A DNA stretch of 41,729 nt from an uncultured Candidatus Saccharibacteria bacterium (GTDB taxonomy: Bacteria > Patescibacteriota > Saccharimonadia > Saccharimonadales > CAYVSP01), in the NCBI GenBank assembly GCA_964540115.1, contig CAZILM010000003.1:1-41729 (forward strand), in the 5' to 3' direction. Both the position numbers and the translations under genes were made by a program. Shown one piece after another: positions 12,341-39,592 of this stretch (positions are counted from its first letter, which is position 1; each line of letters opens with the position of its first letter). A model generated the notes under the pieces. That model did not search any database. It was not told where the DNA came from and saw nothing but the letters and a program-made list of their open reading frames with translations.

Positions 12341-12369
12341 TTGACACCTATCAACAGATAAGATACAAT
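12341..12369 (+). promoter_or_regulatory. near-consensus sigma-70 promoter of the rplJL operon
   Basis: TTGACA (12341-46), 17-nt spacer, TACAAT (12364-69). Confidence 0.65.
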
Positions 12370-12375
12370 TCCGCC

Positions 12376-12552
12376 GTTACCAAAGACAGCGACTGTCGTT
12401 AAAGGCTTAATTTGTCGCCGAGGTGCACTCAAATCTATTTGTTTTGTGAGCACATATGAAAGCTTCTTGGTAACCGGGAAGCTTTTTTGGTACCAGGCAG
12501 TAATTTAACGGTCGAGAATTTCTGCCCGAACTCATAAATGTAGGAGAAAAAT
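12376..12552 (+). promoter_or_regulatory. rplJ leader (probable L10(L12)n autoregulatory leader) with an attenuator-like hairpin
   Basis: A roughly 180-nt untranslated leader with helices GACAG/CTGTC, GTGC(A)CTCA/TGAGCAC and GGCAG/CTGCC. The hairpin AAGCTTC-TTGGTAACCGG-GAAGCTT is followed by TTTTT. Position and length fit the known L10 leader class. Confidence 0.5.
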
Positions 12553-13083
12553 ATGGCTCTTACCAAAGAGAAGAAAAACGCCGTAATTGACCAAGTCGGC
12601 CAATTACTAAGTGATTCTAAAATGACAGTTGTGGCTGCTTATCAAGGTACGCCAGTTAAAGCTATGCAGACTTTGCGGCGCGATGCCAAAGAGAATGGTA
12701 CAACTATTAAAGTTGTTAAAAACCGCCTGGTAATGCAAGCCTTAAAACAATCAGACGTTTTTAAGGAAGCAGATACCAGTGCGCTGAACGGTATGTTACT
12801 CTACGCCTTCAACAGTGAAGATGAGGTAGCACCAGCTCAAGCATTGGCTAACTTCGCTAAAGCACAGCCAACCATGGAATTTGTTGGCGCATACACAGCC
12901 GAAGGGCAGTTCTTAGGCGCAGAAGACGTTAAGTCACTCGCCAGCCTGCCGACCAAGGAACAATTACGCGGCCAGCTAGTCGGTATGCTTGGTGCGCCAT
13001 TAAGTGGTTTTGTTAACGTAATGGCCGGTAATGTGCGCGGTGTATTAACCGTTCTAAATGCTAGAGCCGAATCAATAGGATAA
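12553..13083 (+). CDS. rplJ: 50S ribosomal protein L10
   Basis: 176 aa, MALTKEKKNAVIDQV...TVVAAYQGTPVKAMQTLRR; upstream of rplL. Confidence 0.95.
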   Translation: MALTKEKKNAVIDQVGQLLSDSKMTVVAAYQGTPVKAMQTLRRDAKENGTTIKVVKNRLVMQALKQSDVFKEADTSALNGMLLYAFNSEDEVAPAQALANFAKAQPTMEFVGAYTAEGQFLGAEDVKSLASLPTKEQLRGQLVGMLGAPLSGFVNVMAGNVRGVLTVLNARAESIG

Positions 13084-13095
13084 GAAAGGATAGAT

Positions 13096-13605
13096 ATGGC
13101 AGACGAAGAAGTAAAGAATGAAGCAACTGAAGCTAAGGCCGAGGAAGTAAAGCAGGAGAAACTAGCAGAAGAGAAGGCTGAAGCCAAGGAAGAAAAAGCA
13201 AATAAGAAGGCCGAGAAAGTTGAAGTTCCTAAGGAATTCGAGAAGCTTGTTGGTGAGTTGGACAAAATGTCAGCTCTTGAAATCAGCAAATTTGTTAAAT
13301 TCCTGGAGGAATACTGGGGCGTAAGCGCCGCAGCACCGGCTGTAGCCGTGGCTGCAGCTCCTGGCGGAGAAGCTGCTCCAGCTGAGGAAACTAAGAGCGA
13401 GTACGACGTAGTACTTAAAGATGCCGGCGCCCAAAAGGTAGCTGTCATCAAAGCGGTAAAAGACATTACCAATCTAGGTCTTGGTGAAGCCAAGGCAATT
13501 GTAGATGGTGCACCTAAGACGGTTCTAGAGAAAGCCAAAAAAGACGACGCCGAGGCTGCCAAAAAAGCCTTAGAAGATGCCGGCGCTACAGTTGAGTTAG
13601 CTTAA
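13096..13605 (+). CDS. rplL: 50S ribosomal protein L7/L12 with a roughly 44-aa Lys/Glu-rich N-terminal extension
   Basis: The core reads [35 protein letters not shown]...[26 protein letters not shown]...[12 protein letters not shown]. It is preceded by [44 protein letters not shown], with no alternative in-frame start codon. Confidence 0.95.
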
Positions 13606-26683: not shown

Positions 26684-26758
26684 TGGGACGTCGCCAAGTG
26701 GTAAGGCACCAGTTTTTGGTACTGGCATTCGTAGGTTCGAATCCTACCGTCCCAGCCA
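26684..26758 (+). tRNA. tRNA-Gln (anticodon TTG), CCA encoded
   Basis: TGGGACG-TC-GCCA-AGTGGTAA-GGCA-C-CAGT...loop TTTTGGT...-GTAGG-TTCGAAT-CCTAC-CGTCCCA-G-CCA. The U1-A72 pair and overall sequence closely parallel bacterial tRNA-Gln. Confidence 0.9.
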
Positions 26759-28609: not shown

Positions 28610-29047
28610 CTAGCTCGCCGAGGGGTTGTTTTCCAGGGCGTTAACATCTTCTTTTTGATCAGCCGGTTTTAGAATGTTATCAACTAGAATATCCAGCTGA
28701 TTGTCGTTGAGCTTAGACTTTTCAGCGTAGCCTTCAATGCCCAGATTACGCAATCCAGCTGGCGCATCCGCTTCATTTAAGGCTGAGACTATGAGCACCG
28801 GAATTTTTTGCCCCCATTCGCTGGAGCGCATTATTTTCAGAACCTGGTCGCCGGCAATTACCGGCACCATCAAATCAAGTAAAACTAGATTTGGCATTTC
28901 CTTTTGAATAAGAGCCAGCGCTGTTTTGCCATCATTAGCCACAAAACAGGTGTAACCCAGTAGCTCCATGCGGGTTTTATATATGTCGGCCAGCTCTACC
29001 TTGTCTTCGACAATTACAATTTTCTGAGTTTTACCAAATGCGTCCAT
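28610..29047 (-). CDS. receiver-only (CheY-like) response regulator
   Basis: IVIVEDK..., LVLLDLMVP (phospho-acceptor Asp), LIVSALNE and a Lys region. There is no output domain; 145 aa. Confidence 0.85.
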   Translation of the reverse strand: MDAFGKTQKIVIVEDKVELADIYKTRMELLGYTCFVANDGKTALALIQKEMPNLVLLDLMVPVIAGDQVLKIMRSSEWGQKIPVLIVSALNEADAPAGLRNLGIEGYAEKSKLNDNQLDILVDNILKPADQKEDVNALENNPSAS

Positions 29048-30492: not shown

Positions 30493-31044
30493 ATGAGGAA
30501 AGTATTACAAATTTTAACAGGTGTGGTTGTTTCGTGCGGGCTAATGGCCGGCGTTGCTGCCGCCCAAAGCGCATCTTGTAGCGTTGTGAACACAGGTCCT
30601 AATTCCAATAATACCTGTACTGTAAATACGAATAACACCTTAACGGTAACTTGCACAAATACTGCCAACGTAGTTTACGTTAATGGTCAGAGTTCGAATT
30701 CAGGCAGTGCCACAGTAACAGCCAACACAAGTGGTGGCTACAGTGTCAGCGGAAATGCCGTGAATCAAAATAGCACCAACACCGCATTGGATCTAGGTTG
30801 TGCAGCAGCACCAGCAGCTGCTACCACTACTGCTCCAGCAACTGGTGGAATGGGTGGTGGAACCACAACTCCAGCCACTACTACTGCAACCGCAGCACCA
30901 GCACCGGTCAAGGCTTTGCCAAACACTGGCACAAGTGAAGTTGTTACAATAACAGCAATCGCTACCGCCACACTAGGTGCCGCAGCAATGGTCAGTCAGT
31001 TCGCTAAGAGTGCTTATCGCCGCCGTCTTCAGAAGCAGCTCTAA
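30493..31044 (+). CDS. LPXTG-type (LPNTG) cell-wall-anchored surface protein with one TGPxSxN module
   Basis: Signal peptide (…GVAAAQS), the module VVNTGPNSNNTCTV...NSGSATVTANTSGGYSVSGNA, an Ala/Pro/Thr linker with TGGMGGG, LPNTG at 30916-30930, a hydrophobic helix, and a YRRRLQKQL tail. Confidence 0.85.
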   Translation: MRKVLQILTGVVVSCGLMAGVAAAQSASCSVVNTGPNSNNTCTVNTNNTLTVTCTNTANVVYVNGQSSNSGSATVTANTSGGYSVSGNAVNQNSTNTALDLGCAAAPAAATTTAPATGGMGGGTTTPATTTATAAPAPVKALPNTGTSEVVTITAIATATLGAAAMVSQFAKSAYRRRLQKQL

Positions 31045-31073
31045 GTATTCCTTAGGTAAAAAAGCGAGCCATC

Positions 31074-31673
31074 ATGTTTTTTCAAAAAGCTCGTTACGTA
31101 ATCAGCGTGTCAGGTATTAACCTGGCACTGCTGTTTTTTGTAGTTTATTTAATTAGCCCTGGCACATTCAAACGTTCTCCAGCTAACACCTCCTTAGTTA
31201 GTGCGGAAGCAGTGAATAGGGTTGTCAGGGCGTCGCTTCCACCACCAAAAGCGATTACCGTCGGCAAGCCGGTTAGACTGACGATAACGAGGCTAAATAT
31301 AGATTTGCCAATAGAGGATGGCATTTATAATCCTGAGGATGGCAGCTGGTCACTTAGTGGTTACCATGCACAATTTGCCTATCCAAGCGCACCAGCAAAT
31401 GACAGCGAGGGAAATACTTTTATATACGGTCATAACAATAAAAACGTCTTCGGTCCTTTGAAGAAAATTGAAGAAGGGGATATGGTTCAGATATTCACAG
31501 ATAATGGCCACGTATTTTCGTATAAGTTTGAAGATGCTGTAAATGTTAAGCCGGATGACACATCAGTCTTTAGCTATAAAGGCCCTCCGATTTTAACCAT
31601 ACAAACTTGCAGCGGTAACTGGAATGAATGGCGACGCATGTTTCGCTTCTCCTTCGTGAAAGTGGAAGCCTAA
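31074..31673 (+). CDS. sortase (transpeptidase)
   Basis: N-terminal membrane anchor, LTITRLNIDLPIEDG, catalytic His in FIYGHNN, Cys in LTIQTCSG, and Arg in WRRMFRF. Confidence 0.85.
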   Translation: MFFQKARYVISVSGINLALLFFVVYLISPGTFKRSPANTSLVSAEAVNRVVRASLPPPKAITVGKPVRLTITRLNIDLPIEDGIYNPEDGSWSLSGYHAQFAYPSAPANDSEGNTFIYGHNNKNVFGPLKKIEEGDMVQIFTDNGHVFSYKFEDAVNVKPDDTSVFSYKGPPILTIQTCSGNWNEWRRMFRFSFVKVEA

Positions 31674-32833
31674 TGCTTGATAGCATAGCTGCCGGCACTT
31701 TCTGGCTATCAATTATGTTCGGCATTGGTCTTGGAGTCGTCGGTATAACAGGCGCAAATATTTATGATTTTAAAACGACTAAAGAGCGGAAAGCCAGTCT
31801 GCGCCATCCGTATGCTCGAAAACTTCGCCGCCGCCCTGTTTTAAGTGTCATCATTTTGTCACGCAACAATTCTGCAGAAATCCAAGCTTGTTTATTAAGT
31901 GTGCTGCGTAGCAACTACCGAAAAATTCAGATAATCATAGTCGACAGAGCATCCACAGACGGCACTCAGGGCATTGTTAAGCAGATGATCGTGAAATACC
32001 CGTCACGTGGCATTAAACTGATTGCAAAGCGTCTAAATAGTAATGAAGCCCAGTCTATTAAACAGGCACGCAGATATGCTAGCGGAGATATCACCTTTAC
32101 TATATCCGCTAACAATACCGTAGAAAAAACTACCCTCCGCAATCTAAGTTATCATTTTATAACTAATCCCAGGTTAGAGCACATTTATGCGAGACTGGTG
32201 ATACAGTCAGATCCTTCCTTAACAGGCCTCGGGCAAAAAATGGCACAAAATACTGCTAACTGGCTACAAAAAACAGCGTTTAGAGCATGTGACTACCGAC
32301 CACTCCTACAAGCCAGCAGGGTAGGCAAGAATTCTGCTCACAGAAGCAAATATTATACAGATGTAGTTGTGTTCCAGTCTTCCGTAAGTCACTTTCGTCG
32401 ACTATGGATCAAAGAGTATAACCGCTTGCTTAATAGGAAACGGAACACGCAGAGAACCCAACCTTTGTTTCCTAAAAATTCTCATACTCTATTCAGGAAA
32501 TCTGTGTACTTGGTGATTTTAGTTCAGGCTTTTTTGATACCTTACCTGGTCTATATCGCAGTCTCATTTGATAACCCGCTGTACTTGTTCCTGGCGTGGT
32601 CGGTTTTTTCAGTTTTAGCGGCTGTAATGATCTGGTCAGAGGAAGAAACATTTCTAACTAAGCTGAGAGCTAGCCTGTATATACCAATGCTTTATTGTTT
32701 ATTCTGGTTTTACTGCACGCTGCAACTGTCTATTTTACTAGCAGTTATCGTGTCCGCCGTTAGCAAGCGTTTAGTGTCTGCTTTTAAAGAATTATTATTA
32801 GTGCTTTTAGGGTCGACTAAAAAGACGGCTTAA
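31673..32833 (+). CDS. membrane GT2-like (glycosyltransferase family 2 fold) protein with degenerate DXD
   Basis: The start is taken at the ATG overlapping the sortase stop (TAATG). LSVIILSRNNSAEIQACLLSVLRSNYRKIQIIIVDRASTDGT is the GT2 N-terminal signature. ISAN replaces the usual D-x-D. There is one N-terminal and several C-terminal transmembrane helices. Confidence 0.7.
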   Translation: MLDSIAAGTFWLSIMFGIGLGVVGITGANIYDFKTTKERKASLRHPYARKLRRRPVLSVIILSRNNSAEIQACLLSVLRSNYRKIQIIIVDRASTDGTQGIVKQMIVKYPSRGIKLIAKRLNSNEAQSIKQARRYASGDITFTISANNTVEKTTLRNLSYHFITNPRLEHIYARLVIQSDPSLTGLGQKMAQNTANWLQKTAFRACDYRPLLQASRVGKNSAHRSKYYTDVVVFQSSVSHFRRLWIKEYNRLLNRKRNTQRTQPLFPKNSHTLFRKSVYLVILVQAFLIPYLVYIAVSFDNPLYLFLAWSVFSVLAAVMIWSEEETFLTKLRASLYIPMLYCLFWFYCTLQLSILLAVIVSAVSKRLVSAFKELLLVLLGSTKKTA

Positions 32834-34953
32834 GAGATCAGCCTGAAACGTGATATTAAACGTTCGCCGAGCAGCATCAGTAGTCCCGCCGAAACAGTCA
32901 CCAGGCTAAGCGTCCAGTTCTTATTGTAGTGAAGACCGCCAGCTACCGCGCTAGCTGGTAGACTGTCTTTACTGGTCAAAACAGCGGCCACTGGTTGAGG
33001 TGATTGAGTGTTAGAACCGCCGCCGCTTGCAGCACCGCCTACAAAATTTGTACTACCCGCGCCTGAATTATGGATACTTGCCTGGTAAGGCATAAAGCCA
33101 AAGACACCGGGACTTGTCGCCGGCGCTGCCGCTGAGGTACTGCTACCACTTCCGCCGCCCATGCCACCAGTGGTGGCCGGTGCATTACCATACGGTGTGT
33201 TGACGCCGAAGCTTCCATGCCACGTACCAAACACGTTAATAAACAGCACCCCGAACCAATCAGACACAGAGAATGTGCTGTCAATCATATTTAAGACATT
33301 GACACCTGTAGTAGCCTTGCCAGACTTGGCATCACCGGCATTGGTGTTATTGGTCGCAGCAGCGTCGCCGCTGGCAGCATTAACATTCACATTGTTATTT
33401 ATCTGACTATTTTCGTCTATGCCGACGTTTACATTGCGATCTCCATTGCTATTAATGGTGTTTGTGGAGCCGGCTCCGGTTGCTACAACTGCATTAGTGC
33501 CAGCCGGAGCGTTAAGGATCAGGCCAACCCAATCGCCAAGCACATTAACGAATACTACTAGCGCATTCTTAGCAACAACTTGTTTACCAGTAAGATTAAG
33601 TAGTACAAGCTTGTTATCGGTTGCACCAGTAGTGGCACTGCCGGCATTGGTGTTATTAGCTACGGTAGCGTCGCCCGATACAGCGCCTGACGTGACCTGA
33701 TTGGTTATCTGCCGGTTAGTGTTTACATCAACGTCAACTGACGTATTACCGTTAGCATTAATGGTGTTATTAGATTGGGGCCCGGTAGCGGCGATGATAG
33801 CCTGCAAGAGACCTGGCGGCAGAAGAATATCGCCTTCCAGATCACCATTTATGTTCAGAATACCAACGAACGACTGGTTGGCATAAATAGCTGAATTAAT
33901 CATATTAATAAGATTAACGAGAGCCGTAGCATCACCCGACGTCGCCGAGCCACCATTTGTATTGCTGTCGACCATAGCATCGCCGCTAGTGGCACTGACC
34001 TGTATATCATTATTAATAGCGGCATCTTCTGATACGTGGATATCTACATTCCCATTGCTGGCTGCAGAATTCAGCAAGCTTGGATCAATCATTAAGTCTC
34101 CCTGCACATTTCCATTGATATCAGCTATGAAAGTTGCAATTTGTTCACTACCTAATGAACCCCATGTAGATTGCAGCATGTTCAGGATATTCGCGATGGC
34201 CTGGGCATCACCGGATGTGGCATTACCTCCGTTAGTGTTGCCCTGCACAAAAGCATTGCCGCTACGAGAATCTGATGTTATTACGTTACTTATAGCACCG
34301 TTGAAAAAGAGATCAAAAGCCCCGTTGCTGGTGCCGTTTAAATTAATACCATTATTCGATGATGGTCCGGTATTGCTTATGCTGGCATTGGCCCCAAAGC
34401 CACCACCAGGTGGTTTGGCAACTGAGCGCGTATTAGCTACGTAGGTTCCCGACGCCGGGCTGAATACCCAATCTGTCGTATCCCACATGTGTGTCTGCGG
34501 GTTGTAACTGTAATTTTGCGGTGTTTTGGGCTTGGTTTGGTGGGTAACGGGATCCCAGCTATATAGATCATTCTCCCACATGCCGGTTGCTGCATTGTAT
34601 TGATAAGTAGAGCCATCTACACCATTCGGCTGGGTCGGTCCGGTTGGCGATTGCGGGCCGGTTGGAGTGGTCGGTCCAGTTAGGCTTGGGGTTTGCGTAT
34701 CAGTTGGTGTGCTGGCTGAGGAAGTATCCGCCGGCGTGCTGTCTGTCGGCGTGGTGGCAGATGTATCGGTTGGAGTGTCAACAGTTTCAGCTGGCGTAGA
34801 TTCTGCTGATTGCGAAGTGTTATCAGCAGGATCAGTGACAGTTGGATCTGTTGATGTGTCGGCCAGCGCTACAGCTGGGTAAAAGAAAATCTGCAACACG
34901 ATCATGAGACCGATTACACTATCTTTCAAAATGTGCGACAGCTTTCTTGGCAC
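32830..34953 (-). CDS. large secreted/anchored repeat protein (707 aa) with at least 4 TGPxSxN-type modules
   Basis: GTG start with AAGGAG upstream. In order, it has a signal/anchor helix, a Thr/Pro/Asp-rich spacer and short YxYNxxTxMW repeats. Then come modules such as ISNTGPSSNNGINLNG...GNTNGGNATSGDA, IAATGPQSNNTINANG...NNTNAGSATTGA and VATGAGSTNTINSNG...NNTNAGDAKSGKA. It ends with a TGGMGGG linker and a C-terminal hydrophobic helix plus basic tail. Confidence 0.8.
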   Translation of the reverse strand: MPRKLSHILKDSVIGLMIVLQIFFYPAVALADTSTDPTVTDPADNTSQSAESTPAETVDTPTDTSATTPTDSTPADTSSASTPTDTQTPSLTGPTTPTGPQSPTGPTQPNGVDGSTYQYNAATGMWENDLYSWDPVTHQTKPKTPQNYSYNPQTHMWDTTDWVFSPASGTYVANTRSVAKPPGGGFGANASISNTGPSSNNGINLNGTSNGAFDLFFNGAISNVITSDSRSGNAFVQGNTNGGNATSGDAQAIANILNMLQSTWGSLGSEQIATFIADINGNVQGDLMIDPSLLNSAASNGNVDIHVSEDAAINNDIQVSATSGDAMVDSNTNGGSATSGDATALVNLINMINSAIYANQSFVGILNINGDLEGDILLPPGLLQAIIAATGPQSNNTINANGNTSVDVDVNTNRQITNQVTSGAVSGDATVANNTNAGSATTGATDNKLVLLNLTGKQVVAKNALVVFVNVLGDWVGLILNAPAGTNAVVATGAGSTNTINSNGDRNVNVGIDENSQINNNVNVNAASGDAAATNNTNAGDAKSGKATTGVNVLNMIDSTFSVSDWFGVLFINVFGTWHGSFGVNTPYGNAPATTGGMGGGSGSSTSAAAPATSPGVFGFMPYQASIHNSGAGSTNFVGGAASGGGSNTQSPQPVAAVLTSKDSLPASAVAGGLHYNKNWTLSLVTVSAGLLMLLGERLISRFRLIS

Positions 34954-34995
34954 ACCAGACTCCTTTATTTACGTAAGTATTTGGCCCACCTGTTA

Positions 34996-35045
34996 GACGT
35001 AAGGAGGAGTAGGGTATTGAAAAACCATACCCCTCCGTAAACGTC
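34996..35045 (-). promoter_or_regulatory. intercistronic long hairpin between the 195-aa and 707-aa repeat-protein genes
   Basis: GACGT/ACGTC, GGAG/CTCC and GGGTAT/ATACCC helices around a 9-nt loop. No U-tract follows on the coding (minus) strand. Confidence 0.4.
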
Positions 35046-35091
35046 TCTTCTAAACAACTCTCCTAAACAAGCCGGTAAAGGCTAGCTAGAA

Positions 35092-35679
35092 TTAGTTGCT
35101 CATGTTCAAGCTGGTGCTTGTGTTGTTTGTGTTAGAAGCACTACCGCTGGTAGCTGAGCCACCGTTGGTGTTGCTGCTGACGTTAGCTGTACCAGAGTTT
35201 GATGTCTGGGTGCTAAAGTTACCAACAAATGCATTGTTTGTTGAGCTAACAGTAACAGTGTTGTTACCATTAAACGTTACCTGGTTGTTTGAGCTTGGGC
35301 CTGTGGTGTTAATGGAAGCGCTATCGCTACCAGTGTTACCAGCTGCTGCAGCCATAGCTACGGCGTTGGCGCCAGCGTTGCTCATAGTAACGCTCGTGCT
35401 GTTGGAGTTGCTGTTGCTGGTTGAGCCACTAGTAGCACCACCGGCATTGGTGTTGCTGCTTGTGTTGGCTGAACCAGAGGCTGCGTTTTGCGCTTGCGCG
35501 TTAAAAACGCCTGCTCCGTTGGATGTAGTAACACTTGTGCTGTTACTTCCATTAAATGTTATTAGGTTTGTTGAACTTGGCCCGGTTGTACCAATGTTTC
35601 CGGTTTGCGCTGCGGCGACGCCGGCACTGAGGCCAACACCCAAGACCGCTACTGCAAAGGCTCGTAGTAACTTTTTCAT
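35092..35679 (-). CDS. secreted protein made of two 73-aa TGPxSxN modules (195 aa)
   Basis: The start is taken at the ATG at 35679, preceded by GGAG. The signal peptide MKKLLRAFAVAVLGVGLSAGVAAAQ resembles that of the LPNTG protein. There is no LPXTG and no transmembrane helix at the C-terminus. Confidence 0.8.
   Translation of the reverse strand: MKKLLRAFAVAVLGVGLSAGVAAAQTGNIGTTGPSSTNLITFNGSNSTSVTTSNGAGVFNAQAQNAASGSANTSSNTNAGGATSGSTSNSNSNSTSVTMSNAGANAVAMAAAAGNTGSDSASINTTGPSSNNQVTFNGNNTVTVSSTNNAFVGNFSTQTSNSGTANVSSNTNGGSATSGSASNTNNTSTSLNMSN
35095..35313 (-). repeat. coding repeat unit 2 (73 aa, INTTGPSSNNQVTFNG...NTNGGSATSG...LNMSN)
   Basis: See unit 1 at 35377-35595. Confidence 0.75.
35377..35595 (-). 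repeat. coding repeat unit 1 (73 aa, IGTTGPSSTNLITFNG...NTNAGGATSG...VTMSN)
   Basis: 43 of 73 residues are identical to unit 2 in a gap-free hand alignment. Confidence 0.75.
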
Positions 35680-35786
35680 AAAGTTACTCCTTTCTTTAAA
35701 TTTAGTTGGTTGGTAATTTTCTCGGGTGTTCACCCGACCTTCGACGCCTGTTATTTAGGCACCAAAGGTCGAAGGAACAGGCGACG

Positions 35787-36311
35787 CTACATACTATTAA
35801 ACTCCGTATGATTTACAGTCCCATTGGATGTAGTTGTGGAGCTGGAGGAGAATGTATTAACCTGGGTGGAAGTATTACCGCTGTTGTTAGAATTCTGCAC
35901 ATCGACTGTTGTGGTGCCGTTTTCGTTGGTGACTGTCTTGTGTACCGAACCATTCTGTGGCACCGGCACAGTCTCGCCATTGACACTTACAGAAGTTGAG
36001 CCCTCAGAATTGGCAGAAACATTAGTGGAATTACTAGTAGTAGTGGTCGATGAGGCATCGCTTTTTTGATCGGCGGGCGGGGTTGGTTGCTCCGGCAACG
36101 AATCCGAAAATGAATTCACAGCTGTATTACTTACCGCGGCTTGAGTTGCAGGCTTATTATGGACTGAAACCGCCAGACCAGCAGCTCCAATGAGCAGGGC
36201 TAGAGATAGTGCGGTTGTTTTAGGGTGCTTTGTTAAGAGATTGTGAGGGAGCATGGTAATAGAGGCACTGCTAGCGCGTTTTTTCGGTGTTCGTGCTTTG
36301 CCCCAGAACAA
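35787..36311 (-). CDS. N-terminally membrane-anchored Ser/Thr/Asn-rich protein (start uncertain: TTG 36311 or ATG 36254)
   Basis: GGAGGAG lies 5 nt upstream of the TTG at 36311. The product has a basic N-terminus, a transmembrane helix (TTALSLALLIGAAGLAVSV), then an S/T/N-rich ectodomain. The longer 226-aa ORF from the track starts at a TTG without a Shine-Dalgarno. Confidence 0.55.
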   Translation of the reverse strand: MFWGKARTPKKRASSASITMLPHNLLTKHPKTTALSLALLIGAAGLAVSVHNKPATQAAVSNTAVNSFSDSLPEQPTPPADQKSDASSTTTTSNSTNVSANSEGSTSVSVNGETVPVPQNGSVHKTVTNENGTTTVDVQNSNNSGNTSTQVNTFSSSSTTTSNGTVNHTEFNSM

Positions 36312-36567
36312 AATAGCTCCTCCTTTTTGCCACCCATGACTAGTACTAAATATAAGTGGATTTGACGGATAGTCAATAGTCACGTAGCGAGAATTTTTAT
36401 CATGGTTCAGTATCTGGCGTTCTAGCGTGAATTTTTCAGAGGTACAATACTGTTGTGCTTTAGTCAACTTTCGTAAATACTACAACAATTTTTCTGTGAA
36501 TTATCTCGCAGCATAAGCGTGTTAGAAAAAGTAGAATATCGTTGCAGACTCAAGATAGGGGGAGAAA

Positions 36568-36714: not shown

Positions 36715-36836
36715 CAGTAACTGACTAGCCATAGACTAGAGCGTTCAGATTCGAGACACGTGTTGCTTCTGTTTCTCTCTTTATCGACTCCGTTATAGGC
36801 TATAATAACGGGTATTAAATATTGAGGAGTGAGAGC

Positions 36837-37745
36837 GTGAAAACCCGGCACTACATAATTCTATTTATCATTCTAATTATCAGTTATGTTGGCCTAACAT
36901 TACTTCCGGCACCGGATCCCAAGGCTCTTGTCCAATACAACTTATCAGTTTCACAAGCACGTTTGTTAAGTCTGACCATCGTATTGCCAGTCGTTGCCAT
37001 ATGGTTAGTCGCAATGTATGGTTTCGTAAAGATCAAAGACTATGCGCAGTTAATTAAGAACTCTAAAGACGGGGCCGCTTTGAACACAATTAGCACCGGC
37101 TTACTTTTTCTGGCATTAGGTTCGCCATTTAGCGCAGTACTAACAAGCGTGAGCGCTCAACTTGTAAAAAGACATCCCGATTGGCTGGCCGCTACTACAA
37201 TTATTAATAACTATATAACGTTGATAATTATGGCTCTCGGTATGTTCTTTATTGCTAAGGGAGCCGAGCAACTAGTAAAGCTGGTTGGTAAAAAATCTGG
37301 TAACAATGAACAAAGGTTACTGGTCCTATTATTCATAGTATTGAGCACGCTTTACAGTTACTTCCTGATTTCACAACCGATACAGACACCAGCCGGTCAG
37401 CGCATTTATTACATGTCTCACATAATGGTTCTGCTCACGCTGGCTATTCCATATCTTTATTATTGGTATCGCGGCCTACTGGGAGCATATTACCTGTACT
37501 GGTACCAGAAAAACGTGCCCGGCCGCGTCTACAAAGGATCGCTCAGTTATGTAGCGGGCGGCATTTTTACGGTCATAATGACCTCTATATTAGTCAGGGG
37601 ACTGGTAACGATATCGGCAAGAATCAGCACGCTAGGACTTCCACCAATCTTACTCATTATCTATTGCTTATTACTAATCTCAGGTTTGGGCTACGTTTTG
37701 ATTGCGATTGGCGCCAAAAAGCTACGCAAAATTGAGGAGGTCTAG
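36837..37745 (+). CDS. polytopic membrane protein (about 8 TM), hypothetical
   Basis: The start is taken at the GTG at 36837, 7 nt after GAGGAG. Multiple long hydrophobic helices are present, and a Tyr/Trp-rich loop (YLYYWYRGLLGAYYLYWYQ). Confidence 0.65.
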   Translation: MKTRHYIILFIILIISYVGLTLLPAPDPKALVQYNLSVSQARLLSLTIVLPVVAIWLVAMYGFVKIKDYAQLIKNSKDGAALNTISTGLLFLALGSPFSAVLTSVSAQLVKRHPDWLAATTIINNYITLIIMALGMFFIAKGAEQLVKLVGKKSGNNEQRLLVLLFIVLSTLYSYFLISQPIQTPAGQRIYYMSHIMVLLTLAIPYLYYWYRGLLGAYYLYWYQKNVPGRVYKGSLSYVAGGIFTVIMTSILVRGLVTISARISTLGLPPILLIIYCLLLISGLGYVLIAIGAKKLRKIEEV

Positions 37746-38014: not shown

Positions 38015-39187
38015 ATGCCGAGGTCAGTAGCCAGCAAACAACCCCAGTCTGCGAAATCATTCAGCAAGCACGACAAAGCGCGAGCGGATGCCTTATTCCT
38101 TAGTATTGGCGAGGGGGCTTTCGTTACTGACGGGCAAGGACGTATTAGTCGCATTAATCACGTTGCGCTGGAGCTTTTGGGATTTGAAGAAAGCGAACTT
38201 GTCGGCCAGTGGTATCCCGGCATTATAGTTGCTGAAGATAGTGCCGGCAAAGTTTTCCATAATTTAGAGAGGCCAATCACTAGAGTGTTCCTGACCGGAA
38301 AGTCGGTCAGCGCGCGCTTATATTATAGGCGCAAGGACGGCACACGCATACCGGTATCGTTAACTGTTTCGCCGGTGATATTAAAAGGAAAGCCTGTTGG
38401 TGCCATAGAAGTCTTTAGGGACATCAGCCACGAACTGGCCTTGGAGCAGGCTAAGGATGATTTTATCTCGATTGCCTCTCACCAACTTAGAACACCTGCT
38501 ACGGGCGTAAAACAGTACGTCGGCATGCTACTAGAAGGTTATGTAGGCAAACTACCGGCCGAACAACAATTACTCTTGACCAAAGCTTACGAGAGCAATG
38601 AGAGGCAACTTAAGATAATTGACGACCTGCTCAAAGTCGCCCGGGTTGATGCCGGTTTCATTAGCCTACAAACCGAAACGGTTGATTTGATCCAACTACT
38701 CCAAGACGTTATATATGAACAGCTGGGCAAAATTGAAAAACGCCACCAGACAATTAAATTCCAGCATACAGCCAAGAGCCTAAAACTTAATATCGATTCT
38801 GCTTTGATGCGCATGGTGTTTGAGAATTTAATAGATAATGCCAGCAAGTATACGCCGGAAGGGAAGGGTTTAAGGGTCCGAATTGTCAAAACTAGCAAGT
38901 CAGTTGTCATTAGTTTTAACGACGAAGGTGTTGGCATTGCGAAAAGAGACATTGGCCAGCTCTTCCAGAAATTTGCCCGATTTAATGACAGCATCACTCA
39001 CGCCGCTGAGGGTAGCGGGCTGGGTCTCTACTGGGCTAAGCAAATAGTAGATCTGCACAATGGCACAATCTCGGTCACTTCTCGATTGCACAAAGGTTCG
39101 ACATTTGTAATACAACTACCGGTAAATCGGGACGGACTTGCACAGAGCGAGGGCACGAAGGTACTATTAAGTGAGAAAGAAGGATAA
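38015..39187 (+). CDS. soluble PAS-domain sensor histidine kinase
   Basis: PAS-like region (GEGAFVTDGQGRISRINHVALELLGF...), H-box SHQLRTP, N box (NLIDNASKYT) and G boxes (DEGVGI, GSGLGL). No transmembrane segment. Confidence 0.85.
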   Translation: MPRSVASKQPQSAKSFSKHDKARADALFLSIGEGAFVTDGQGRISRINHVALELLGFEESELVGQWYPGIIVAEDSAGKVFHNLERPITRVFLTGKSVSARLYYRRKDGTRIPVSLTVSPVILKGKPVGAIEVFRDISHELALEQAKDDFISIASHQLRTPATGVKQYVGMLLEGYVGKLPAEQQLLLTKAYESNERQLKIIDDLLKVARVDAGFISLQTETVDLIQLLQDVIYEQLGKIEKRHQTIKFQHTAKSLKLNIDSALMRMVFENLIDNASKYTPEGKGLRVRIVKTSKSVVISFNDEGVGIAKRDIGQLFQKFARFNDSITHAAEGSGLGLYWAKQIVDLHNGTISVTSRLHKGSTFVIQLPVNRDGLAQSEGTKVLLSEKEG

Positions 39188-39193
39188 ATATTA

Positions 39194-39592
39194 ATGGCCC
39201 ACATCCTGATTGTTGAAGATGATCAAGTTCTGAACGATGCTTATAAGTTGATACTGACCAAAGAGGGACATGAAGTAAAAGTAGCGCATGACGGTGTTGA
39301 AGGACTAAAATGCCTCAAAGGCTACACACCTGATGTGATACTTCTGGATTTACTGATGCCGAATCTTGATGGCATTGGTTTTTTGAAAAAGTACCAAAAG
39401 ACGTATAGCGACCGTAAGGATACCAAAGTCGTAATTTTGACCAATCTGGATCAGGACAAAGAAATACAAGCGGCCCTCGAACTTGGAGCCTACAAGTATA
39501 TTGTCAAAGCCCGCACATCACCTAAACAACTGGCAATCAACGTAAACCATCTAGTAAATAGGAATATCGACAAAAGGTCCGAAGACTCCTAA
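39194..39592 (+). CDS. receiver-only response regulator
   Basis: ILIVEDD, VILLDLLMP (acceptor Asp), ILTNL, and a KYIVK Lys. No output domain; 132 aa. Confidence 0.85.
   Translation: MAHILIVEDDQVLNDAYKLILTKEGHEVKVAHDGVEGLKCLKGYTPDVILLDLLMPNLDGIGFLKKYQKTYSDRKDTKVVILTNLDQDKEIQAALELGAYKYIVKARTSPKQLAINVNHLVNRNIDKRSEDS

Follow-up and report, generated by a model that had tools for sequence, protein, structure and literature searches.

Much of bacterial diversity belongs to the candidate phyla radiation (CPR), whose members seem to live attached to other cells. To our knowledge, few of their surface structures have been identified so far, namely type IV pili and Pam pili. Outside the CPR, the chaplins of Streptomyces occur as long forms with a sortase signal and short secreted forms, and they make a surface amyloid layer. 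Pam pili, described from Candidatus Mycosynbacter amalyticus, consist of two-domain immunoglobulin (Ig)-like pilins of 39-55 kDa that use donor-strand exchange and PapD-like chaperones and involve no sortase (bioRxiv 10.64898/2026.03.03.709456). A transposon-sequencing (Tn-seq) paper on Southlakia makes no mention of sortase. Here we analyze a six-gene locus of an uncultured Candidatus Saccharibacteria bacterium (contig CAZILM010000003.1), in a window, the whole stretch of DNA analyzed, of 41,729 nucleotides (nt). The cluster spans 30493-36311, with genes A, B and C on the plus strand and genes D, E and F converging on them from the minus strand. Three of its products (A, D and E) share a repeated module, B is a predicted sortase, and C resembles family 2 glycosyltransferases (GT2). 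We conclude that the module proteins A, E and D, together with F, the sortase and the GT2-like protein, are a real, conserved and uncharacterized envelope system of environmental Saccharibacteria. The six genes are as follows:

30493-31044, plus strand: gene A, an open reading frame (ORF) for an LPNTG protein of 183 residues
31074-31673, plus strand: gene B, a membrane-anchored sortase of 199 residues (Pfam PF04203)
31673-32833, plus strand: gene C, a membrane GT2-like protein (PF00535)
32830-34953, minus strand: gene D, an ORF for a 707-residue protein with a GTG start
35092-35679, minus strand: gene E, a secreted two-module protein of 195 residues with an ATG start at 35679
35787-36311, minus strand: gene F, a Ser/Thr/Asn-rich protein of 174 residues with a TTG start at 36311

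The cluster works most like the sortase-dependent surface display of Gram-positive bacteria. Gene A encodes a Sec signal, LPNTG, a hydrophobic stretch and a basic tail and lies directly upstream of a sortase with His, Cys and Arg, a pairing that is conserved across orthologues. It departs from that scheme in that B scores below the cut-offs of all class A-F models, the passenger module of A has no family, two further paralogues are anchored otherwise, and a seemingly dead GT2-like gene is coupled to the sortase. The chaplins likewise comprise small, paralogous, beta-rich units in wall-anchored and unanchored forms, one or two per protein; however, we found no chaplin-domain match, the cluster module is hydrophilic and Asn/Ser/Thr-rich whereas chaplins are hydrophobic, and they offer no counterpart to the large, membrane-anchored, four-module D. 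Curli (CsgA/CsgB) and Fap resemble the cluster in their imperfect Asn/Gln/Gly/Ser/Ala-rich repeats with glycine turns, and in that an anchored paralogue could nucleate a secreted one, but they show no sequence match and only an insignificant structural one (FapC), the cluster has no secretion genes of the CsgG or FapF type, and its envelope is Gram-positive-like. In Spa-type pili, too, the sortase adjoins genes for several secreted surface proteins, but here LPXTG occurs in A and not in E or D, B lacks a class C signature, and no CnaB or Ig-like domain is present; the lysines of E are confined to its signal peptide, and it therefore has no nucleophile for a pilin motif. Pam pili share with this cluster a surface structure restricted to CPR/Saccharimonadia, unannotated Sec-exported proteins and C-terminal membrane-helix anchors (bioRxiv 10.64898/2026.03.03.709456). 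Nevertheless, the cluster proteins differ in size and domain pattern from the published description, and on that published architecture we rejected an identity with Pam pili (bioRxiv 10.64898/2026.03.03.709456). We also rejected a serine-rich repeat adhesin: the repeats here are structured modules of 75-100 residues and the GT2-like protein is degenerate. The six cluster and ten flanking gene products scanned gave no accessory-Sec (SecA2/SecY2-type) Pfam match.

We scanned relatives with one genome per species; 177 genomes matched, and the best 80 loci were kept. Nearly all of these are labelled Candidatus Saccharibacteria, Saccharimonadales or Saccharimonadia, and complete chromosomes among the related genomes measure 0.76-1.19 Mb. 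The gene order of the window is found again with orthologues only 39-45% identical. E lies directly upstream of D in every locus with enough flank (72/72), and F was recognized upstream of E in at least 49 of these 72, a lower bound because F is poorly conserved. Of 49 loci, 22 have a sortase gene no farther than 3.5-7 kb downstream of D, arranged convergently or co-directionally; sortase linkage is thus frequent, not obligatory. When metagenomes were searched with the sortase as query, the gene just before the sortase was A in 23 of 33 loci and the gene just after it was C in 24 of 33; D was nearby in 10 of 22. The misses fell mainly on the most distant sortases, and several A-B loci lack C. 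The genes thus form two conserved units, F-E-D and A-B-C, which are neighbors in about half of the loci. A previous sequence-only reading of this DNA had proposed that the module proteins belong with each other and with the sortase, and the E-D and sortase-D counts extend that linkage to other genomes.

The module was captured with two profile hidden Markov models (HMMs), one per unit of the E family. They match A once (55 bits), E twice (53-77 bits) and D four times (29-50 bits, at residues 191-252, 300-344, 387-448 and 491-550), with zero matches in F, and a six-frame translation of the window gave no module match outside A, D and E. The best of 200 composition-preserving shuffles per protein reached at most 9.2 bits, and HMMER bias terms for the module matches are high. 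Units 1 and 2 of E are identical at 43 of 73 residues. Across an E-family alignment of 74 sequences, 30-57% identical to the E of the window, the pattern reads TTGPxSxNxV ... VxNxN ... VxNxNxQxAxSGxAxVxxNTxGGxAxSGxAxNxN ... VxN, with nine invariant residues, eight of them Gly, and near-invariant Asn, Thr, Gln and Ala. This position-specific conservation with invariant glycines argues that the module is not compositional noise. The sequence-only reading had described all six ORFs at these coordinates, the distribution of one, two and at least four modules over A, E and D with none in F, the identity of the E units, and the order of elements in A (signal peptide, one module, linker, LPNTG, helix and basic tail), all of which we recovered. 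Its remark that the modules hold almost no charged or aromatic residues applies to E and A of this genome but not to the D modules or to the orthologues of E and A, in which Asp, Glu, His, Arg and Lys are frequent at variable positions.

The family is broad. Among 1.84 billion proteins, the E-family profile retrieved 3,015 cluster representatives (50% identity) at E <= 0.001, with two to nine modules per E-like protein and one named member from the Parcubacteria group. Seven diverse family members have no Pfam family, A, D, E and F match no named family in Pfam, NCBIfam or PHROGs, and PDB sequence searches with E-family, D-family and Trp-repeat profiles returned nothing meaningful. In the literature on sortase, LPXTG, S-layer and surface proteins of Saccharibacteria, CPR and Patescibacteria, we found no description of the module or the cluster. 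The earlier statement that the module lies outside named families is borne out by these searches together with the structural ones below, and, judged by its sequence, the module is a previously undescribed domain of ~75 residues in which Asn, Thr, Gly and Ser abound, with a predicted all-beta fold. Two of the 74 E-family members match FecR (PF04773; P0144 at 28 bits against a cut-off of 24) and the E of the window does not; hhalign of the E family against E. coli FecR did not uphold this remote lead (probability of 0.8%). The YdcK beta-solenoid repeat and CsgH, of the curli-inhibitor family, appeared only as sporadic sub-threshold matches.

The wall-anchored protein A has the following parts:

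30493-30564, plus strand: signal peptide, ending in AAA with Q as the next residue
30580-30792, plus strand: module (HMM, 55 bits)
30793-30915, plus strand: Ala/Pro/Thr linker, containing TGGMGGG at 30841-30861
30916-30930, plus strand: LPNTG (residue 142)
30931-31041, plus strand: hydrophobic stretch (26 residues, mostly hydrophobic) and RRRLQKQL tail

In a scan of the whole window, A was the only ORF with a canonical sorting signal, as the sequence-only reading had it for the four exported proteins. A combines the three hallmarks of LPXTG proteins (C-terminal motif, hydrophobic segment and positive tail), although the anchor profiles stay just below their cut-offs (PF00746, 14.9 bits against 20; TIGR01167, 14.3 against 15.9). 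Of 54 A orthologues, 46 carry LPxTG, with x being E, N, A, K, S, D, Q, V or F. In three orthologues (L033:9607-10122, L034:10230-10751 and L041:9750-10301), P-V-G-[AG]-V-x-A-G replaces LPxTG before the hydrophobic tail and could be a variant sorting signal. The conserved cysteines C29, C42, C54 and C103 of A flank and lie inside the module, the position of C103 being kept in at least 80% of orthologues; E has none. This difference suggests disulfide stapling confined to the wall-anchored module of A.

The TGGMGGG linker that had been noticed in both A and D is indeed shared (residue 117 of A and residue 595 of D). It is one case of a short linker motif, GG[MRKQ]G[AG], that recurs among the orthologues of A (29 of 54) and of D (13 of 91). 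Recent gene conversion as its source was rejected, since DNA similarity between A and D is confined to the motif.

Gene B starts 29 nt downstream of A and matches PF04203 (peptidase C60) at 63.7 bits (cut-off 26.6, E = 1.8e-17). The catalytic His, Cys and Arg motifs, previously called intact, are invariant among 22 B orthologues:

31431-31433, plus strand: catalytic H120 (YGHNN)
31608-31610, plus strand: catalytic C179 (IQTCSG)
31632-31634, plus strand: catalytic R187

B stays under the cut-offs of all NCBIfam sortase class models A-F, the best being class D (37.2 bits against 165), and the solved structures nearest to it are class A sortases (E = 2e-8). By these motifs and profile matches, B is predicted to be a bona fide sortase outside every curated class.

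D has over 1,000 homologues that are each about 700 residues long, none of them named or assigned a Pfam domain. This four-module protein is laid out as follows:

34861-34953, minus strand: signal peptide
34639-34860, minus strand: Ser/Thr/Pro-rich region, disordered in the model (residues 32-105)
34414-34617, minus strand: Trp-rich hairpin repeats (residues 113-180)
34066-34383, 33796-34065, 33490-33795 and 33178-33489, minus strand: four extended modules
32914-33177, minus strand: disordered linker (~90 residues), with TGGMGGG at 33151-33171
32833-32913, minus strand: C-terminal transmembrane helix and basic tail

At the C-terminus of the D orthologues, a variable linker leads into a transmembrane helix and a basic tail, often with ...GER.... 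The sequence-only reading had missed this anchor. D as a second sortase substrate was rejected: 'LPASA' of the window protein is not conserved, and LPxTG occurs in one of 90 orthologues. An AlphaFold2 model of D, built from a 72-sequence alignment, comprises a signal helix, the Trp-rich hairpin region (110-180) at a predicted local distance difference test (pLDDT) score of 71-88, four all-beta repeats whose cores exceed a pLDDT of 90, and a terminal helix (681-706); the TGPxSxN segment is of low confidence. Each repeat consists of a 60-residue module plus a hydrophobic extension of ~40 residues (e.g., WFGVLFINVFGxWxGSFGV) that E and A do not have. According to DSSP, each repeat contains one strand of 17-21 residues followed by short strands joined by SGD, NTN and SG turns, a predicted pattern that does not look like short solenoid rungs. 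The sequence-only reading had expected a stacked beta-solenoid or fibre rather than a globular domain. The model agrees with it on an all-beta, four-fold repeat with confident cores, which refutes mere disorder for D, and departs from it in strand length and in the absence of a structural neighbor: as modelled, the module fold is without a recognizable relative in the libraries searched (PDB and BFVD). Foldseek matches of the D model to antifreeze beta-helices and tail fibres were insignificant and were set aside.

The Trp region of D consists of three tandem Trp/Tyr-rich hairpins (Y-x-Y-N-x-x-T-G-x-W-[ED]) and is the best-conserved part of the protein, with a mean column identity of 70% and W126, W133, N151 and W157 invariant. 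We consider it a candidate ligand- or glycan-binding domain; its invariant Trp and Asn suggest a conserved ligand, possibly a glycan, rather than a variable host receptor. A Kelch or OCRE identity was rejected, the matches being sub-threshold and at the level of a motif (Y-N-P-x-T-x-W), with three hairpins against the six blades of a Kelch propeller.

Gene E, of which there are 97 close homologues of about 195 residues, encodes:

35608-35679, minus strand: signal peptide
35377-35601, minus strand: module 1
35320-35376, minus strand: linker
35095-35319, minus strand: module 2

Neither LPXTG nor a C-terminal helix was found in E or in any of 136 E-like representatives with two to nine modules (136/136). 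An AlphaFold2 model of E alone is poor (pLDDT 55.7). F has an N-terminal membrane helix preceded by a basic cytoplasmic stretch, and an alignment of 58 orthologues reveals a conserved core, V-x-V-N-G-Q-x-[IV]-x-V-P-x-N-G-S. The predicted anchoring modes are therefore the wall for A, a C-terminal helix for D and an N-terminal helix for F, with E alone free. The earlier picture of one wall-anchored base with secreted or assembled partners is therefore incomplete. In three related loci (L020:5327-5929, L043:5237-5854 and L056:5473-6075), an A-like module protein occupies the slot of F upstream of E; these proteins have a plain C-terminal membrane helix (...WSWVP...SKYK...) without LPxTG.

The start codon of C (ATG 31673) overlaps the sortase stop codon (TAATG), as had been seen before, and an alternative ATG lies at 31628. 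C matches PF00535 at 55.5 bits (cut-off 23.3, E = 8.7e-15), and its best NCBIfam match is PgaC_IcaA, over the N-terminal part. Its layout of an N-terminal helix, a GT-A domain and C-terminal helices is that of processive GT2 synthases (PgaC/IcaA, NodC, cellulose and hyaluronan synthases), but it has S-A-N at the DxD site (phmmer alignment to DAD of PDB 6YV7), and its TED and QxxRW regions are absent or degenerate; most orthologues have lost these motifs as well. Of 17 orthologues, L028 alone (L028:9729-11015; LDAD, TED and QRYRW) preserves DxD, TED and QxxRW together, and it also keeps the further D of the synthases. This pattern suggests that C is a pseudo-glycosyltransferase descended from a PgaC-type synthase. 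It may have been kept for a function other than catalysis, perhaps by partnering in the membrane with the sortase to which it is translationally coupled, and a role in glycosylation is unlikely because the catalytic motifs are lost.

Ribosome-binding sites of the AAGGAG type lie 6-7 nt upstream of the D, E and F starts (AAGGAGG for F), and the following expression signals were found around the cluster genes:

31045-31134, plus strand: two stem-loops directly 3' of A, one spanning the sortase start codon (minimum free energy, MFE, -29.6 kcal/mol, z = -4.1)
31107-31128, plus strand: the other of these two stem-loops, with a T-run after it that lies within the 5' end of B (terminator-like match)
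34956-35094, minus strand: stem-loop between E and D (MFE -42.1 kcal/mol, z = -2.1)
35682-35789, minus strand: 17-bp stem-loop between F and E (MFE -32.5 kcal/mol, z = -3.3; 0/200 shuffles as stable)
36349-36376, minus strand: best sigma-70-like promoter match upstream of F (TTGACT, 16 nt, TATATT), a consensus match only

The number of sigma-70-like matches in the region equals the chance expectation. In related loci (L001-L139), the regions behind F, E and A form stem-loops with z < -2 in 86% (58 loci), 79% (86 loci) and 46% (48 loci) of cases, compared with 16% after D, 14% after B and 0% after C. Across the window, two of 33 genes have such a stem-loop, the other lying after ORF 13096-13605, which stands two ORFs behind an L10 leader and is therefore probably rplL. 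An Rfam scan of the cluster detected no known RNA element. The simplest reading is that the stem-loops act in attenuation or transcript stabilization, yielding more of the small proteins than of D and the sortase, which would be consistent with structural subunits. The stop codons of C and D overlap by 4 nt (32830-32833), compared with gaps of 30-65 nt in orthologous loci, and this overlap therefore leaves no space for terminators between both operons in this genome.

On balance, we think it somewhat probable that the locus encodes a conserved multi-anchor, heteromeric envelope assembly built on the shared module. All module proteins and F would be exported via Sec. The sortase would cleave A between Thr and Gly of LPNTG and join it to peptidoglycan, and D would be held by its C-terminal helix, with a long stalk presenting its four modules and Trp-rich domain beyond the wall. 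Because E has no anchor and lacks the hydrophobic sub-domain of D, it would be retained by module-to-module beta association with anchored A and/or D, and A, D and E together would form a surface layer or short appendage spanning membrane, wall and exterior. Owing to the stem-loops that follow F, E and A, the small subunits would outnumber D and the sortase, and the GT2-like protein would be a catalytically dead relic of a polysaccharide synthase serving as the membrane partner of the sortase, not a glycosylating enzyme. For an episymbiont, host-cell contact is a plausible role, although one that we purely infer. A more specific version, in which E polymerizes by beta-stacking into a new CPR-specific heteromeric surface structure, tethered by A in the wall and D in the membrane, while the D hairpins bind a conserved glycan of the host or of the cell's own wall, is an unlikely extension.

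Several points weigh against the multi-anchor assembly. We infer physical interaction, and any filament or layer, from genes and models alone. Foldseek searches of the D model against PDB and BFVD gave nothing significant (no match at E <= 0.001; template modelling (TM) scores <= 0.35). The poor model of E alone fits a requirement for a partner, but it may just reflect the shallow 74-sequence alignment. The motif loss in C was read from an alignment, not from an assay, and the stem-loops could be ordinary terminators of separate transcription units. Cultivated oral or host-associated Saccharibacteria contributed no homologue among the 80 loci kept of the 177 genomes matched. Finally, 27 of 49 D loci have no sortase inside 3.5-7 kb, so both units can function apart, at least genomically. 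This last observation also speaks for two independent units, an A-sortase-GT2-like operon with a single substrate and a separate F-E-D group that share a domain without co-assembly, much as unrelated proteins share Ig-like domains. Likewise, 12 of 22 sortase loci have no D nearby, and the two units of the window lie on opposite strands with separate promoter regions. We take this explanation seriously but doubt it: the units are adjacent in about 45% of loci despite changes in orientation, both carry one and the same rare module, which the rest of the window lacks, and A and D have the GG[MRKQ]G[AG] linker motif in common.

The remaining explanations concern what the proteins are made of or made for. 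In a functional-amyloid or beta-solenoid fibre like chaplins or curli, E would polymerize by stacked strand-turn-strand units and A or D would nucleate and tether it. Such a fibre would account for the alternating conserved N/Q/A/G pattern with SG-x-A and NT-x-GG turns, for anchored and secreted paralogues with two to nine modules per protein and for the stem-loops, which suggest that E is made in excess, and the sporadic YdcK and CsgH matches point the same way. FapC amyloid is moreover the top PDB match of D in Foldseek, but this match is insignificant (E = 0.58, probability 0.01, TM 0.04-0.10), no curli, Fap or chaplin Pfam match exists, the strands of D are too long to resemble solenoid rungs, and the model of E is of low confidence; we regard a fibre of this type as unlikely. 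Quite improbable, in our view, is a glycoprotein or exopolysaccharide system in which the GT2 glycosylates the Ser/Thr/Asn-rich proteins or makes a polymer that they bind or attach to. The Pfam match and PgaC-like architecture of C, its translational coupling to the sortase, the intact DAD, TED and QRYRW of the L028 orthologue and the abundance of N-x-S/T and Ser/Thr in the modules would suit it, but the C of the window has neither DxD nor TED and QxxRW, 16 of 17 orthologues are degenerate, and some A-B loci do without C altogether. Disordered, low-complexity, mucin-like proteins, with the module as a compositional artefact, are largely refuted and very improbable: despite the extreme N/S/T/G/A composition, the high bias terms and the poor model of E, same-composition shuffles stay below 10 bits against 29-77 bits for the real proteins, Gly and Asn columns are invariant across the diverged E family, and the module cores of D are modelled with high confidence.

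The locus adds a conserved set of CPR envelope proteins that are unnamed in annotation resources, and with it a new domain family whose members, clustered at 50% identity, give about 3,000 representatives and reach the Parcubacteria group with at least one of these. It also presents a predicted sortase outside the curated classes for which one substrate is clear, a GT2 synthase decayed to an apparent pseudoenzyme, and a candidate new beta fold for structural biology. If the proteins do form a polymerizing heteromeric structure, episymbiotic Saccharibacteria would have a third apparatus for attachment in addition to type IV pili and Pam pili. In environmental Saccharimonadales, metaproteomics, cryo-electron tomography and genetics can be directed at A, D, E and the sortase.

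The cluster is flanked by two-component system genes and a membrane protein gene; these response regulators, the PAS kinase and the 307-residue membrane protein are not conserved in loci L001 or L002. Elsewhere, the window contains four tRNA genes and an L10 leader, whose downstream ORFs are probably rplJ-rplL, judged by position:

28610-29047, minus strand: response regulator, flanking the cluster
36822-37745, plus strand: unannotated multi-pass membrane protein of 307 residues, flanking the cluster
38015-39187, plus strand: PAS histidine kinase, flanking the cluster
39194-39592, plus strand: second response regulator, flanking the cluster with the PAS histidine kinase
196-268, 334-405, 699-770 and 26684-26755: four tRNA genes
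12362-12497, plus strand: L10 leader (Rfam RF00557), upstream of ORFs 12553-13605

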